DNA of 8,580 bases from a virus (Duplodnaviria > Heunggongvirae > Uroviricota > Caudoviricetes), in IMG/VR virus record IMGVR_UViG_2547132270_000009. One strand, 5' to 3'. The position numbers and the translations under genes are program-made. The notes under the pieces are model-generated. The model ran no database searches, was not told the origin of the DNA, and saw nothing but the letters and a program-made list of their open reading frames with translations. Of the stretch, positions 440 to 7,165 are shown piece by piece. Numbering within the stretch: the first letter of the stretch is position 1; every line of letters begins with the position of its first letter.

Positions 440-2245
440 TTAATTTTTTCCATCGTCATTTGTGACCGATGCACATGATGGCATCCAGTCTTCTGAATCC
501 TCTGTAAGGGTCACATTTGAACGCAAACCGTGCTTCGTTTTCCGTTTCATATACTCCCTGCCATATTCCGCCATTGCCCCCGGCATATCTTTACCGAAGC
601 GCGTCAGTGTTACAGGTTTACCGAATCCGTGTGCCCTCATATATGCCAGATAGGCGTGATAAAGATACCTGCGCGGACTGAACGGAATAATTTCGGCATT
701 ACCCACTAACAGACCATCACACATTACCGACGACATGAGATAGCCGCAGAAGTCCACCAGCGAATCGCCCTCGCGTTTTATCACCAGTGCTTCTTCTGAT
801 TTCTGCTGCTCATACAGCAGGCGTTTAGCTTCGTCCTGGTCAGAAAAACGAGTAAGCAGGTGGCGAATCACAACCGCCAGCTCTCCTTCTATTTTTTCTG
901 CCAGCATGGGGTCGCGTTCGTTTTCCGGTACAACCTCCGAAAAATTGAATATCACCCGACGACGTGAGATCCCCCCGCTGCGGTCACTGAATGACATGGC
1001 GTTATTGTTCACCGCCAGCACGACCGCCTGAATGCGTGTTGAGTAGGGGGCTTTATGCTTCGGGTCGATTGCCACCTTGTCACCGCCTGTAATGGCCTTA
1101 ATTCCTGCGCCATCACCAGCGTAGCGGGTCATATCCGGCATGATAATCAGCGAAAATCCAACCACTAACGCGCGTTCCCTGGCATCTTCCAGCGCCTTCA
1201 TGCTTGCCGATACCGTGTTGGCCTTACCCGCCAGCATGGTGCAAATCTCCGCCATTACGCTTTTACCGCTTCCACCCGGCCCCGTTACCTCAAGAAATAA
1301 CTGCCAGTCGTATCGGTTCGCCAGCACCATGAATAACGCCGCCAGTACGCGATCCGCTTTACGGTCATTCTCAGCCACCGAACGGCGCAACCATTTCCAG
1401 AAATTCGGCGCATGCGTTGCCAGCGTTTCCCCCTCTGCTGGCGGGCTGAACGGTAATTCACTGGCAATTAACAGCCAGTCGTTTTTGTCATGCTCCCGAA
1501 AATCGCCTGTCCGGGTATCAAAAACACCGTTACTGAATCCAATCAGGTTACGGGCGGTATTCCCCATTACGGGCAAACTTAACTTCATTGTATCGACCGC
1601 CGATTTGATGGCGTTCTGCGAATAACTGATCTCCGCATCAATAAAAATCTGCGCCATAGCCCGCTGTAACTCTTTATCCTGTACCGGCTCCCATACAACG
1701 CCGTTGTAGTGGTGAACGGTGTCAGAGTCCGCATTGATTGCCAGTTCACCGCCATAACGTGCCAGGAGAACTTCGCCGCGCTGGCTTGCTCCCATCTGGT
1801 TAAGCGCCAGTGGTGCGGCGCTGTCTTCTGTTTTTTTCTTAACAGGAAGCTGAATAACCAGACCATCAGAAAGATTCTGGCGCTCACGCTCCAGATATTC
1901 GTGCCAGTTCTCCCGCTTCTGGCTGTGCATTCCCTCAGGGTAATAATTCGCATCCCGTACACCTGCCACCGCCAGCTTTTGCCCGATGGCATTAATATTT
2001 GACGGCTTGATGTGGCCTGCCTTGTACAGCCGGACACAATAGCGACCATCGTCGATAATTTTCAGGCCTGCCAGTTCGTCAAGCTGGCTGTCTCCCAGCC
2101 ATACAGGCGGAACATTGTCGCCAGCAAGTCGCCCGTCCTGCTCCTGCCATTGTTTCGCGTGCGCCCAGGCATCACTACCCGCAAAAATAATGACTTCGGT
2201 CATTTTGTCGTGCGGCTGTTTTTTCAGATTCGGTGCCAGTTTCAT
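440..2245 (-). CDS. replication protein, SF3-family helicase / primase-like (P4 alpha-like or PICI Pri-Rep-like), 601 aa
   Basis: 601-aa ORF with AGGGG Shine-Dalgarno 6 nt before the ATG at 2245. Walker A VTGPGGSGKS, Walker B-like SLIIMPDM, SF3 motif C VVLAVNNN and an arginine finger region SRRRVIFNF are all visible in the translation. Adjacent iteron array fits an initiator and its origin. Confidence 0.85.
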   Translation of the reverse strand: MKLAPNLKKQPHDKMTEVIIFAGSDAWAHAKQWQEQDGRLAGDNVPPVWLGDSQLDELAGLKIIDDGRYCVRLYKAGHIKPSNINAIGQKLAVAGVRDANYYPEGMHSQKRENWHEYLERERQNLSDGLVIQLPVKKKTEDSAAPLALNQMGASQRGEVLLARYGGELAINADSDTVHHYNGVVWEPVQDKELQRAMAQIFIDAEISYSQNAIKSAVDTMKLSLPVMGNTARNLIGFSNGVFDTRTGDFREHDKNDWLLIASELPFSPPAEGETLATHAPNFWKWLRRSVAENDRKADRVLAALFMVLANRYDWQLFLEVTGPGGSGKSVMAEICTMLAGKANTVSASMKALEDARERALVVGFSLIIMPDMTRYAGDGAGIKAITGGDKVAIDPKHKAPYSTRIQAVVLAVNNNAMSFSDRSGGISRRRVIFNFSEVVPENERDPMLAEKIEGELAVVIRHLLTRFSDQDEAKRLLYEQQKSEEALVIKREGDSLVDFCGYLMSSVMCDGLLVGNAEIIPFSPRRYLYHAYLAYMRAHGFGKPVTLTRFGKDMPGAMAEYGREYMKRKTKHGLRSNVTLTEDSEDWMPSCASVTNDDGKN

Positions 2246-2972: not shown

Positions 2973-3205
2973 AACCCCCCCCCATTTTCACAATCAGCAA
3001 TCAGGATAGCCCTGGCCTCATTCAGTGCCATATCAGCGGTAAGCTGTGCGTAAGCCAGCGAATGCGGGATTATCGCCCCTGTATATTCCGTCTCTCTGGT
3101 AATGTGTTTTTCTGCGGTTGCTGCCGTGCATGAAATATCAATCAGCGCGTGCATCAGCGTTTTGATGGCTTCGGCGGCTGCGCCCGGACGGGTGTTATTG
3201 CACAT
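2945..3205 (-). CDS. hypothetical small protein (86 aa as read); reads through the G9 tract and stops shortly after
   Basis: ATG at 3205 with AGGGGGTG Shine-Dalgarno; overlaps the Icd-like stop by 8 nt (ATGTGCAATAA). Ends CENGGGLCVMIVLIP. The first ATG of the raw ORF (3247) is rejected because it overlaps the Icd-like gene. Confidence 0.45.
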   Translation of the reverse strand: MCNNTRPGAAAEAIKTLMHALIDISCTAATAEKHITRETEYTGAIIPHSLAYAQLTADMALNEARAILIADCENGGGLCVMIVLIP

Positions 3206-3395
3206 GATGCACCCCCTGACGAATACGGGCGGCGAATACAGCGACACAACCGGACGGGCAACGGTTACGCGCTTCGCGTTCTGTCCAGGCGGTCACGTGG
3301 ATAATTTGAGAATCTCCGGCACTCAGTGCCAGAAAACGCCACACAAAGGCGGTTTGTGTGTGCGCTAGTCGTGGGGTATGCTGTCTTACAGCCAT
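3195..3395 (-). CDS. Icd-like small protein (P4 kil/icd-type host cell division inhibitor family), 66 aa
   Basis: ATG at 3395 with GAGGTAA Shine-Dalgarno 5 nt upstream. Translation MAVRQHTPRLAHTQTAFVWRFLALSAGDSQIIHVTAWTEREARNRCPSGCVAVFAARIRQGVHHVQ fits the F-W-R-F ... EREAR ... AARI pattern I recall for Icd-like proteins of P4-like elements. First gene of the minus-strand operon. Confidence 0.6.
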   Translation of the reverse strand: MAVRQHTPRLAHTQTAFVWRFLALSAGDSQIIHVTAWTEREARNRCPSGCVAVFAARIRQGVHHVQ

Positions 3396-3496
3396 AATCG
3401 TTACCTCATTTAACGGTTTGGTTAGAAGCCCCGTTACTGCTCCAACAGTGCGGGGCTTCGTCGTTTCAATTGCTGAATTGCATGTATCAGCCCTTG

Positions 3497-3550
3497 TGGT
3501 ATTCAGATTACATTTTGGTGAATACCAGTTCAAGTCTTTTTTGGTATTCA
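3497..3550. promoter_or_regulatory. divergent promoter/operator region: three TGGTATTCA sites and a candidate sigma70 promoter for the minus-strand operon
   Basis: TGGTATTCA at 3497-3505 (direct), 3519-3527 (inverted) and 3542-3550 (direct); the first two form an inverted repeat with a 13-bp spacer. On the minus strand, -35 TTGAAC (plus 3528-3533), 17-bp spacer, -10 TAATCT (plus 3505-3510) overlap these sites. Confidence 0.4.
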
Positions 3551-3594
3551 CTTTTGTATTACACTGCATCCCGTTATTAATCGGAGGTGCAAAC

Positions 3595-3900
3595 ATGTCC
3601 ACGAGTTCTGTTAACAATAAGTCACAGCAACTGAATGCCAGATTTCCACATGAAGTAGTGAGTGGCATTGAGGCATCCCTACAGCCTGGGGAAACTAAAG
3701 CGAATTTTATAGTTACGGCTGTACGCGGTGAAATCGCCCGCCGCCAAGCAGAAGGAAGAGGAGAAAATCCCCTGGTTTCTTCGCTCGATGCACTGGCGCA
3801 GGTGGAAAAAATCGGTGTCAAAGCAGCCGAGGAGATCGGGCAACTCGTCACCGTCGCGCGTGAAGAACTCCAGCGCCGCAAGGCCAAAGAACAGGAGTAG
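3595..3900 (+). CDS. ribbon-helix-helix DNA-binding protein, YlcI/YnfO (DUF3950)-like; candidate regulator of the element
   Basis: ATG at 3595 with GGAGGTG Shine-Dalgarno; 101 aa. N-terminal LNARFPHEVVSGIEASL...KANFIVTAVRGEIARR fits the RFP...NF...RR pattern of YlcI/YnfO-type proteins; charged helical C-terminus. It is the only + strand gene inside the element, divergent from the operon. Confidence 0.7.
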   Translation: MSTSSVNNKSQQLNARFPHEVVSGIEASLQPGETKANFIVTAVRGEIARRQAEGRGENPLVSSLDALAQVEKIGVKAAEEIGQLVTVAREELQRRKAKEQE

Positions 3901-4394
3901 TTGATCAGCACCGGGCGCCCAGAAAAAATCGTATCAGTCGCGCCACCAGCAAAATTTTTTGCTTTCCGGACAGCGTGGCCAACGACATTTTGCAGCAAAA
4001 TATTCTGCATTTCTGGCGTGCTGTAGTAACGGTGATCAGCGCCTTCACATTGAACGAACTTGTCGCTAAAATTCACCCATATAGCAAACATCGCGGTGCT
4101 GTAGGTAATTCGTTCACAAAGGCGCTCCGGCAACGGGGCGCTTTTTGTTTTTATTAGTTTGTAGAAACCTGACTCAGAGATAATGCTCATATTCTGATTG
4201 CCGTCAGGGGTGTAAGTTAAATTTACTCCCTTTTTATCATCAAACATCTGCAACGCTCTGGCGTTAACAATATTGGTTTCACTCCCGCCAGTAAGGCCGG
4301 AAATAACCGGAATAATTTCGGCAAAATTTTGCAGATTCTGTTTTTCAGGACGAACGAAGCCCCGCCCTTGTTCGGGAGAATATCCAGTATTCAT
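3900..4394 (-). CDS. Bro-N-like (antirepressor-type) protein; 3' end unresolved, possibly a pseudogene
   Basis: ATG at 4394. The first 120 or so residues contain Bro-N-like blocks (FDDKKGV...NMSIISESGFYKLIKTKSAPLPERL). The frame has no stop until 3195, running antisense through the RHH gene and into the Icd-like gene, so the real C-terminus cannot be set from sequence; 3900 is an approximate boundary. Both other minus frames hit stops near 3903-3930. Confidence 0.35.
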
Positions 4395-4446: not shown

Positions 4447-4635
4447 TTAGTGAACTGCCTCGCAGCTTTCCTTCCATGCCAGAACTTCGGATAAAGACCA
4501 GCCAACGGAACGACCGCCGAGCTTACGCCGTGATGGGAATTGTCCGGTTTTTTCCAGGCGGTACCGACATGAACGGCTCAGGCCTGTAAGTTGCTGACAT
4601 TCTTTTTCACGTATAAAGCGATCTGTGCTTAACAC
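4447..4635 (-). CDS. alpA: AlpA-family phage regulatory protein (excisionase/activator-like), 62 aa
   Basis: GTG at 4635 preceded by an AGGGGGA Shine-Dalgarno. Translation ...ECQQLTGLSRSCRYRLEKTGQFPSRRKLGGRSVGWSLSEVLAWKE fits the AlpA helix-turn-helix pattern. Upstream in-frame ATGs (up to 4803) lack a ribosome-binding site. Confidence 0.8.
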   Translation of the reverse strand: MLSTDRFIREKECQQLTGLSRSCRYRLEKTGQFPSRRKLGGRSVGWSLSEVLAWKESCEAVH

Positions 4636-4930
4636 AATTCCCCCTTTGATATTTCTTAAAGAGTTATTTGGTGTCCTATTGTGTTGTGGTGCGTCGGATT
4701 GTGTCAGGGTGTTTATGGAATGGCAAACACTGGCGGCGGTCATTTTACAGAAGTGTGGTAATGAGAATAAAAACTCTTTTAATTCATTGTGGTGCAAAGG
4801 CATAAAATTCTGTTTTTACGCCTTTTTTACATGTTTTTAAGAGTGATTCGCCAATGTACAAAAAGCCAGTAAAACGACTGAAAATCAACTTTTTAGGGTG
4901 TCAGTCAGATGTTAATCAAGTTTGTTCCAG

Positions 4931-5002: not shown

Positions 5003-6250
5003 TTATATTTCTCTGGCTATTGGCAGTGTGGTTACGTTTTTGTGAGTACCCGCCAGTATCTCTAACCGCTCTGTCCACATGTCCAGCGCATTACGTTTCG
5101 CATCGAGATAACGGGAGTGGTTATAGACTCGCTGCATCCCTGGCATCTGGTGAGCGGTGAGTTGTTCGACAATATGCGGATCCACGCCTAAATCGTTCAG
5201 CATCGTGGTAAACGTGCGCCGTATATCGTGTAGTGACCAGTGCGGATGGTTTAATTTTTTGTGCATGAATCTGCCGTATTGCGACACACTGGCTTCCTGT
5301 TTCAGTTCCCCGAGTAATAGCCCTGTGTGTCTGTTCTGCTCCACCAGCTGCGTGACGAACGGTAAAATGCTTTCCGGTATTGGCCTGAATATGGCGACCT
5401 TCGTTTTGCTGTGCTCTTTCGGTACTGTCCAGAGCATTTCCTTAAAATCCCACTCCCTGATCTCCGATAATCTCAGTTCTCCGGTTCGGCAGCCGAACAC
5501 AATCAGGAGGCGGATTAGTGCGCTGTAGTAGGGCGGGAATATTTTTTTATCCAGCGCCTGTAATAATTCGCCAAGTTCTTTGTTGCTCAGCACGCGTTCG
5601 CTTATGCCTGGTTTTTTGCCAACGTCCACCACGTTAAGATCATCCAGAACGTTACTGACTGCGTAGCGACGTTTACGGCAGAACTTAAGCGCCTGTTTAC
5701 ACGCCTGCATCATGTGACCAGACGTTACAGGGGATTTTTTGCGTATCCGGTCAAAACAGGCCAGCCAGTGACGTAACTCGCATTTATCCAGTGGCATATT
5801 GCCAATATGCTGTATGACGTGATTATTCAGGCGGCTTTTCAGGCATACGTAATCGACACGGTTTTCCTTTACGTGCATTTCCAGCCAGTAGCTGATCGCA
5901 TCACCCACCGTTACCGGCTTTAGTGCTTCCTGTATGGAGTAATTAAGCTCATGGCGTGGATTTTTTCCTTCTGCCAGCCATGCGCGACACTGTGCCGCTT
6001 TTTCCCTGGCTGCTTTCAGGCTCAGATCAGGATAATTTCCCAGCTTCAGGCGTTCCGGTGATACCTGGCGTCCAGCTCCTGCCCTGTAGGTGAAATACCA
6101 GGTTAACAAGCCGCTGGTGGAATGCCTGACGCTCAGGTTTCCACCGTCATTAAGAAATGTGGTTTTTGGGGCTGGTGTGCCGTTGATTTTTCTTAGCTGT
6201 GTATCGCTCAGTTTGTTAAGTGCTCTGCTCATAATTTTGAATCCGGTCAT
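5003..6250 (-). CDS. int: tyrosine-type site-specific integrase, P4-like family
   Basis: About 415 aa. N-terminal arm-binding domain (DGGNLSVRHSTSGLLTWYFTYRAG...LGNYPDLSLKAAREKA) resembles P4-type integrases; C-terminal catalytic motifs HDIRRTF and YNHSRYLDAKR (tyrosine nucleophile). Start is ATG at 6250 or GTG at 6253; no strong Shine-Dalgarno for either. Confidence 0.93.
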   Translation of the reverse strand: MTGFKIMSRALNKLSDTQLRKINGTPAPKTTFLNDGGNLSVRHSTSGLLTWYFTYRAGAGRQVSPERLKLGNYPDLSLKAAREKAAQCRAWLAEGKNPRHELNYSIQEALKPVTVGDAISYWLEMHVKENRVDYVCLKSRLNNHVIQHIGNMPLDKCELRHWLACFDRIRKKSPVTSGHMMQACKQALKFCRKRRYAVSNVLDDLNVVDVGKKPGISERVLSNKELGELLQALDKKIFPPYYSALIRLLIVFGCRTGELRLSEIREWDFKEMLWTVPKEHSKTKVAIFRPIPESILPFVTQLVEQNRHTGLLLGELKQEASVSQYGRFMHKKLNHPHWSLHDIRRTFTTMLNDLGVDPHIVEQLTAHQMPGMQRVYNHSRYLDAKRNALDMWTERLEILAGTHKNVTTLPIAREI

Positions 6251-6254
6251 CACA

Positions 6255-6849: not shown

Positions 6850-6895
6850 CAAAAAATATCTTGTGTTATTCGCAAAATCTATGGTACCTCTTTAG
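6850..6895 (+). promoter_or_regulatory. ilvL-ilvG operon promoter region
   Basis: Candidate -35 TTGTGT (6861-6866) and -10-like TATGGT (6880-6885) 40-70 bp upstream of ilvL, but the spacing between them is only about 13 bp, so exact element assignment is uncertain. AT-rich upstream sequence (6760-6850) fits UP/IHF-type elements. Confidence 0.4.
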
Positions 6896-6929
6896 ACATT
6901 CCTTCGAACAAGATGCAAGAAAAGACAAA

Positions 6930-7028
6930 ATGACAGCCCTTCTACGAGTGATTAGCCTGGTCGTGATTAGCGTGGTGGTGATTATTATCCCACCGTGCGG
7001 GGCTGCACTTGGACGAGGAAAGGCTTAG
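6930..7028 (+). CDS. ilvL: ilvGMEDA operon leader peptide (32 aa)
   Basis: Translation MTALLRVISLVVISVVVIIIPPCGAALGRGKA, rich in Ile/Val/Leu control codons, recognised as the ilvL leader peptide; TAG stop at 7026-7028. Confidence 0.95.
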   Translation: MTALLRVISLVVISVVVIIIPPCGAALGRGKA

Positions 7029-7050
7029 AGATCAAGCCTTAACGAACTAA

Positions 7051-7085
7051 GACCCCCGCACCGAAAGGTCCGGGGGTTTTTTTTG
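7051..7085 (+). terminator. ilv attenuator, rho-independent terminator
   Basis: GC-rich stem ACCCCCG (7052-7058) pairing with CGGGGGT (7071-7077) around a GAAA loop, followed by a T-run (7077-7084), between ilvL and ilvX/ilvG. Confidence 0.9.
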
Positions 7086-7114
7086 ACCTTAAAAACATAA
7101 CCGAGGAGCAGGCA

Positions 7115-7165
7115 ATGAATAACAGCACAAAATTCTGTTTCTCAAGATTCAGGACGGGGAACTAA
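7115..7165 (+). CDS. ilvX: small protein IlvX (16 aa)
   Basis: ATG at 7115 after GAGGAGCAGG; translation [16 protein letters not shown] then TAA, matching the 16-aa IlvX small protein as I recall it; ends 2 nt before ilvG. Confidence 0.8.

Follow-up and report, generated by a model that had tools for sequence, protein, structure and literature searches.

A conserved hairpin ahead of an Icd-like satellite operon is most likely the terminator of a widespread, undescribed family of cis-antisense RNA

What does a perfect G+C-rich hairpin do just ahead of the first gene of a satellite's replication operon, and on which of the two strands does it act? The question is raised by an 8,580-nt stretch of viral DNA (IMG/VR record IMGVR_UViG_2547132270_000009), the whole of which we refer to as the window. 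There an original prediction, made from the letters alone, had placed a 9-bp stem in the leader of an operon headed by an Icd-like gene and had read it either as an RNA control element comparable to that of P4 or as a palindrome bound by protein. The genes and signals that frame the hairpin are as follows.

2245..440, minus strand: P4-family primase/D5 helicase gene, the last gene of the Icd-like operon
3195..3395, minus strand: Icd-like gene (icd), 66 aa, with its ATG at 3395..3393 and its stop at 3195; NF033153 (phage_ICD_like), 66.1 bits
3407-3404, minus strand: icd Shine-Dalgarno GAGG, read from the sequence
3505..3533, minus strand: probable icd-operon promoter, found by eye, TTGAAC (3533-3528), 17 nt, TAATCT (3510-3505)
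3497-3505, 3518-3527 and 3542-3551: three TGGTATTCA(C) sites whose orientation alternates, overlapping the -35 and -10 of the sense promoter
3595..3900, plus strand: divergent YlcI/YnfO-family gene, 101 aa; NF041551, 60.3 bits
within 4447-4803, minus strand: AlpA gene
5003-6253, minus strand: tyrosine integrase gene

The Icd-like gene, which carries the same annotation in a 97% identical island, is the first of a leftward operon in which small overlapping genes are followed by the P4-family primase, and the gene layout as a whole identifies the element as a Gram-negative phage-inducible chromosomal island (PICI). Its regulatory region is 97% identical to that of an E. coli island with capsid, decoration and small-terminase genes, which makes that island a capsid-forming PICI (cf-PICI). 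Just downstream of the primase gene, at 204-437, GGTGAACAG / CTGTTCACC occurs at least nine times, in either orientation; these iteron-like repeats probably mark the replication origin of the satellite, and they also gave spurious Rfam matches to plant microRNAs (MIR821, MIR395 and MIR1508). Elsewhere in the window, Rfam returned a strong Rev39_5p_UTR match at 6858-7148 (plus strand; 156 bits, E = 5.6e-48). A 16-codon ORF (7115-7165) closes this region and is immediately followed by a further ORF, from 7168 onward. If the latter is IlvI-like (acetolactate synthase large subunit), as we take it to be, then 6858-7165 is the ilvIH leader region, abutting the integrase end of the island.

Closer to the hairpin, the candidate sense promoter lies upstream of it in the direction of icd transcription, in agreement with the order originally proposed; TTGAAC-17-TAATCT falls below the threshold of our promoter scan, and the equivalent TTGACA-17-TAAAGT was called in locus L002. 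The TGGTATTCA repeats that overlap this promoter are operator-like, with the YlcI-like protein, AlpA or a helper factor as candidate binders, and relatives carry different, class-specific palindromes at the same position. The divergent YlcI-like protein may, on slight sequence grounds, be a ribbon-helix-helix repressor, which would give the region an immI-like layout. Its N-terminus, QQLNARFPHEVV (3595-3645, residues 8-23), contains an Arc/Mnt-like NxRFPxEV motif, the DNA-reading beta-strand motif of P22 Arc and Mnt being FNLRWPREV, and pairwise comparison with P22 Arc gave a weak match, E = 9e-4. A PDB sequence search with the YlcI-like protein returned noise only, and its single-sequence AlphaFold model is of low confidence (pLDDT 65.8). 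Two long ORFs across this part of the window look like chance ORFs: one of 399 aa on the minus strand (3195-4394) that spans the regulatory region, and one of 180 aa on the plus strand (3358..3900), in frame with the YlcI-like gene, in which the hairpin would be coding sequence; we rejected the latter as a gene, its frame being open in 7 of 128 distinct relatives.

The inverted repeat itself is present as described, both in the sequence and in an inverted-repeat check: GAAGCCCCG (3425-3433) and CGGGGCTTC (3451-3459) are perfect 9-bp arms with 17 nt between them. Perfect 9-bp inverted repeats with a gap of 3-20 nt are expected 0.62 times per dinucleotide-shuffled window, so the repeat alone is not beyond chance. 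We judge the hairpin real because it is conserved and covaries in relatives, as set out below, and because both the sense leader (z = -3.9) and a plus-strand 83-mer (z = -6.8) fold more stably than expected. We call the hairpin SL2 and describe it on the plus strand.

3425..3459, plus strand: SL2, GAAGCCCCGU/U/ACUG-CUCCAA-CAGU-GCGGGGCUUC

The 17-nt gap between the arms had been taken for the loop; the gap stands, but it is not unpaired throughout, as ACUG and CAGU pair within it and leave a 6-nt apical loop. The plus strand gains a U3434·G3450 wobble that lengthens the stem to 10 bp, above which SL2 has a single bulged nucleotide, a 4-bp helix and the 6-nt loop. It is a G+C-rich stem-loop with six G-C pairs in the lower stem, as expected of an intrinsic terminator, and a 58-nt segment centred on it has a folding energy of about -24 kcal/mol on the plus strand. 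In the orientation of the icd mRNA, 29 nt separate the end of SL2 from the ATG and about 17 nt separate it from GAGG; the hairpin thus sits in the leader of roughly 105 nt, between the candidate promoter and the Shine-Dalgarno. Folding of this leader had been suggested as a check and yielded the z-score given above, and the absence of a U-tract, also part of the original prediction, is borne out 3' of the hairpin on the icd strand (UAACCAAACC).

Relatives were retrieved with Icd-like proteins of three sequence classes, which gave about 200 loci from viral contigs, and further ones came from E. coli genomes, one Klebsiella phage record and plasmids. Since Icd-like proteins served as queries, retrieval was independent of the hairpin, and a hairpin at the same position is present in all relatives retrieved. 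Comparing them provides a test of strand, which is decisive because a G·U pair on one strand is an A×C mismatch on the other. Among 25 distinct sequences, 98.7% of the cells of the 9-bp stem are paired on the plus strand, 32 of them as G·U, against 84.4% on the icd-sense strand, where the same 32 cells are mismatched and G·U is absent; across the 17 RNAalifold pairs in 60 distinct aligned sequences, the plus strand has G·U/U·G in 140 cells, spread over nine pairs, and A·C/C·A in 2 cells, both in one pair. The compared sequences are related, so that there were fewer independent events than these counts of cells suggest. Folding energies agree: the plus-strand 90-mer has a lower minimum free energy (MFE) than its sense counterpart in all 93 distinct relatives, by 10.6 kcal/mol on average.

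The stem also covaries, the second check that had been proposed. It is conserved in related islands, and in the 60 aligned sequences the 13 SL2 pairs are 98.7% paired and 7 of them have compensatory changes on both sides, with five pair types at one of these (CG 30, UG 14, GC 11, UA 2, AU 1). Two loci, L192 and L197 (about 1415-1504, minus strand), carry an unrelated hairpin, GAGGCUGCGAAAGGA...UCCUUUUCAGCCUC, in place of SL2 and retain the neighbouring hairpin described below, as if one structure had been exchanged for another in place. The strand-asymmetric pairing and the folding energies argue that the structure is selected in plus-strand nucleic acid, that is, antisense to icd, and on this comparison of sequences we make the strand assignment with high confidence. 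The suggestion of a structured RNA control element ahead of the Icd-like operon is thus upheld, but its P4-type termination in the operon's own leader is not, as the opposite strand is the one selected, and the strand on which to look for the element is corrected to plus.

On the plus strand, SL2 is adjoined on its 5' side by another hairpin.

3390..3423, plus strand: SL1, AGCCA-U-AAUCGUUA [CCUCAUU] UAACGGUU-UGGUU

The 7-nt loop of SL1, CCUCAUU (3404-3410), is complementary to the icd Shine-Dalgarno, and CAU in its stem, the complement of the icd start codon (3393-3395), is paired with the UGG of a UGGUU motif (UAACCA in the sense direction) that nearly all relatives conserve. The 83-mer from 3388 to 3470 whose z-score was given above folds as these two hairpins, with an MFE of -35 kcal/mol. 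The closing pairs of SL1 are conserved in 60 of 60 aligned sequences and its outermost A-U in 50 of 60, and the inner stem has a class-specific sequence yet is always formed. The two-hairpin fold occurs in every sequence class, including the L002/L134 class, in which SL1 has a different sequence and register.

Signals of the kind that would start and end an RNA flank the pair of hairpins on the same strand.

3354..3359, plus strand: -35-like hexamer TTGTGT, 17 nt upstream of TATGCT
3377..3382, plus strand: -10-like hexamer TATGCT of a putative antisense promoter, inside icd codons 5-7
3460..3470, plus strand: tail after SL2, GUCGUUUCAAU, a weak U-tract in the window copy

The predicted antisense start site is at about 3388-3390. 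The T, the A and the final T of the -10-like hexamer are invariant in 25 of 25 aligned relatives, and TAnnnT precedes the first SL1 pair by 4-8 nt in all 103 sequences, with variants that include TATGAT, TAGACT and TGGTATAAT. The last of these is an extended -10 and belongs to the L002 class, where the hexamer is nearer the icd start codon and the start of SL1 is shifted later to match. In terms of codons, all 18 distinct sequences compared have T as the third base of His CAT, the base that gives the -10 its A at position 2, and the third positions near it are mostly variable. TTGTGT is invariant in 18 of 18, two synonymous third positions included, but the cause of this conservation is ambiguous because the hexamer is also part of a sense-strand hairpin inside icd, and the conservation of both hexamers could partly reflect coding constraint or that hairpin. 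The putative promoter of the window has 7 of 12 consensus matches and was not called by our consensus scan.

The intragenic hairpin is an observation in its own right. It is terminator-like, lies within icd codons 12-22 (3330-3360, minus strand) and reads CACACAAA-CCGCC-UUUGUGUG followed by GCGUUUUCUG, overlapping the -35-like hexamer of the putative antisense promoter; it could stop the operon transcript if icd were left untranslated. We considered it as a family-wide attenuator and rejected it in that role, since it is found in the window and L028 classes only, and not in Klebsiella-type or L002-type sequences.

At the other end, the weak tail of the window copy corresponds in relatives to UUUGCUUUUUU, UUGUUUUUUU and similar tails, some Klebsiella-type tails being poor, and over the 10 nt that follow the hairpin relatives have a mean of 4.9 U on the plus strand, compared with 1.0 in the sense direction. 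Our terminator scan of the window made no call at SL2 with the tail GUCGUUUCAAU; the homologous hairpin of Sp7 in E. coli O157:H7 Sakai was called terminator-like on the antisense strand, with 15 pairs and the tail GCTTTTTTAA; the Sp7 counterpart of window 3388-3470 is at about 1,597,427-1,597,508 of NC_002695.2, minus strand. The limits of the conserved block match those of a unit that these signals would delimit. In otherwise diverged islands BLAST matches are limited to window positions 3374-3466 or 3419-3467, and identity among ten relatives, 0.65-0.79 as far as 3469, falls to about 0.5 in the DNA that follows, which holds the sense promoter and operator-like repeats that differ between classes. 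A covariance model built from 60 sequences gives one strong match per locus, always antisense to icd. Its match in the window, at 3386-3475 of the plus strand, reaches 92.8 bits, and the sense strand reaches 17.6 bits; scores are 38-64 bits in a class outside the seed, and 24.5 and 28.6 bits for two copies in which SL2 is replaced by an unrelated hairpin.

In our preferred reading SL2 would be the 3'-terminal stem-loop and probable intrinsic terminator of a cis-antisense RNA of ~80 nt (about 3390-3468, plus strand) that would repress icd; judged from sequence comparison we consider this likely, and it is from the structure, its boundaries and its flanking signals that we infer the RNA's existence, its ends and its repressive effect. 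In this proposal a weak sigma-70 promoter, TTGTGT-17-TATGCT, within the first icd codons would start the RNA, which would fold into SL1, with the anti-Shine-Dalgarno CCUC in its loop and the start-codon complement in its stem, and SL2, which would end and stabilise it. Being fully complementary to the icd translation-initiation region, the RNA would pair with the icd leader, probably beginning with loop-loop contacts, and the resulting duplex would block ribosome binding, make a substrate for RNase III, or both. Since icd and the genes behind it overlap one another, a loss of icd translation should reduce expression of the entire replication operon as far as the primase, and the satellite would be kept quiet until its activator is induced.

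We also looked for this RNA among those already catalogued. The Hfq-crosslinking (CRAC) table of sRNAs from E. coli O157 Sakai (Tree et al. 2014, Table S2) lists no RNA at the homologous position in Sp7, which is a weak negative, as that list covers only Hfq-bound, expressed RNAs. Two other RNAs were considered as counterparts and set aside: Esr41/EcOnc14 adjoins iha in SpLE1, away from any Icd-like gene, and EcOnc33 (~71 nt) sits in the late region of the lambdoid Sp6.

Other explanations of the hairpin have to account for the same observations. The main one keeps the plus strand and does without a free sRNA: the structure would be an attenuator, an insulator or a long 5' leader for transcripts that start inside icd and run toward the YlcI/YnfO gene, or would act mainly through transcriptional interference with the icd promoter. 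The strand-specific pairing fits such a role equally well, the YlcI gene lies on the same strand 135 nt downstream, and the weak U-tract of the window makes read-through toward 3595 plausible; we nevertheless regard it as unlikely, given that conservation ends at about 3469, as it would for a unit ending there, that many relatives have strong tails such as UUUGCUUUUUU, and that the interval between hairpin and YlcI gene is class-specific operator and promoter DNA. The hairpin might instead act in the minus-strand leader of the icd operon itself, by attenuation as in P4 or P1, by processing or by an effect on stability. The stem of the window is indeed perfect on both strands, it lies inside the roughly 105-nt leader with its z of -3.9, and an Icd-like gene follows, a feature shared with the P1 immI operon. 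What makes this very unlikely is that relatives have A×C mismatches on the sense strand exactly where the antisense strand has G·U, that the sense fold is the weaker one in 93 of 93 relatives, and that no U-tract follows in the sense direction. Complementary target sites are likewise absent from the transcript: 640 nt of it contain no complement of at least 7 nt to the apical part of the hairpin, hence no analogue of the P4 seqA/seqC pairing. Nor was there an Rfam match to C4 (RF01695) or IsrK, whether in the whole window at E up to 1 or in 3370-3600 at E up to 10.

Two further possibilities place the function in DNA, and we give each of them very little credence. That the hairpin is an operator palindrome bound by a dimeric protein, the alternative offered in the original prediction, would suit a perfect inverted repeat in a regulatory region, but conserved symmetric half-sites were not found: the arms change by paired and strand-asymmetric substitutions, and an asymmetry between G·T and A·C is meaningless for duplex DNA. 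In addition, the centre varies in both length and sequence, two relatives have an unrelated hairpin in its place, and the three TGGTATTCA copies, 40-90 bp away, are better operator candidates. A single-stranded plus-strand DNA signal for priming, packaging or replication of the satellite would escape the argument from asymmetry, as strand-specific G·T is tolerated in ssDNA hairpins too, and the element does encode a primase. It is equally improbable in our estimation, however, because the structure lies exactly over the translation-initiation region and comes with an anti-Shine-Dalgarno loop, a -10-like hexamer and a T-rich tail, because the iteron-like origin repeats are elsewhere (204-437), and because the same module heads a plasmid BREX operon that has no adjoining primase.

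The module is widespread. A 97-nt block is matched in 806 of 5426 complete E. coli genomes, at up to 7 places per genome, and on 107 plasmids of Klebsiella, Escherichia and Salmonella, and it occurs in the cf-PICI Sp7/EcCIEDL933 of O157:H7. In the two plasmids that we examined, an IncY plasmid (L217, NZ_CP040574.1, 3112-3832) and an IncR plasmid (L218, NZ_CP018691.1), the module scores 91.2 bits; it is flanked on one side by a divergent 59-aa gene and on the other by a 137-aa ORF whose N-terminus is Icd-like. In L217 the 137-aa ORF is followed by brxR (WYL)-brxA-brxB-brxC, so that the module heads a BREX defence island there. Gene order suggests that the 59-aa and 137-aa ORFs are probably the brxS and brxT of the pEFER island, whose published study detected no promoter activity upstream of brxS.

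On the whole, SL2 is most likely the terminator hairpin of an undescribed, widespread family of cis-antisense RNA. A more speculative extension, to which we assign a low probability, is that the divergent small Arc-like gene, the class-specific operators, the antisense RNA and the Icd-like N-terminus together form a portable control cassette, used by PICI, cf-PICI and BREX islands alike, in which the variable apices of SL1 and SL2 would determine which co-resident satellites silence one another; the apical parts of both hairpins are strongly variable and reassort independently of their flanks. Should the cassette exist, it would amount to an RNA-based immunity or incompatibility among satellites, with a role comparable to that of P4 CI. 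In papers on PICI and cf-PICI the master activator is AlpA, and neither a small nor an antisense RNA is mentioned; an antisense RNA at this site would, if real, add a post-transcriptional safety layer to this AlpA-only picture of Gram-negative PICI regulation. Literature searches on Icd-like proteins with antisense, on PICI with antisense RNA and on ECs1576/1577 found nothing relevant.

Comparison with curated families and classical systems places the proposed RNA among known mechanisms and outside known sequences. Rfam searches of the whole window (E up to 1) and of 3370-3600 (E up to 10) gave no match to the region above noise; the sub-threshold matches there (RsaJ, R1162 antisense, sar, F6 and the AAC_AAD leader) are all far below their thresholds, the sar model (RF00262), for instance, reaching 16.8 bits on the minus and 14.7 bits on the plus strand, over the hairpin only, against a gathering threshold of 43. 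In a phage collection, P4 and P1 were not among the DNA or protein matches, and tblastn of the Icd-like protein against phages found one 16.5-kb record only.

The sar RNA of P22 is a 68-69-nt cis-antisense RNA of the immI region that has two stem-loops and acts on ant. The RNA proposed here would resemble it as a small cis-antisense RNA in the control region of a mobile element, opposite to the operon that it regulates, which covers the ribosome-binding site of its target and has two stem-loops, the second of which ends the RNA (here by prediction, not by homology). The likeness may extend to a divergent small gene whose product has an Arc/Mnt-like N-terminus, a weak motif match. The two differ in that they share no homology of sequence or structure, that the target here is an Icd-like replication operon and not an antirepressor, and that the putative promoter lies inside the coding region of the target.

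With C4 of P1 and P7 the proposed RNA shares an Icd-like first cistron that governs the genes behind it and an icd ribosome-binding site that becomes occluded. C4, however, comes from the same strand as its target, is cut out of the leader by RNase P and uses short a'/b' segments for pairing, so that the outcome for icd-ant in P1 is the one proposed here and the mechanism is different. P4 is likewise a satellite with an RNA-based layer of control ahead of an operon that ends in a primase, but its CI RNA is a sense-strand RNA, a stable product of about 79 nt that RNase P/PNPase process from the leader, and it brings about premature termination through seqA/seqC pairing. Closer in manner of action are R1 CopA, IS10 RNA-OUT and ColE1 RNA I, cis-antisense stem-loop RNAs that cover the 5' part of genes for replication or transposition and in which loops start the pairing, the last hairpin is the terminator and loop sequences vary; they differ in sequence family, in target and in host element, which here is a PICI satellite or the head of a BREX island. 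The proposed antisense RNA would thus work like sar and the plasmid countertranscripts while standing outside any curated family.
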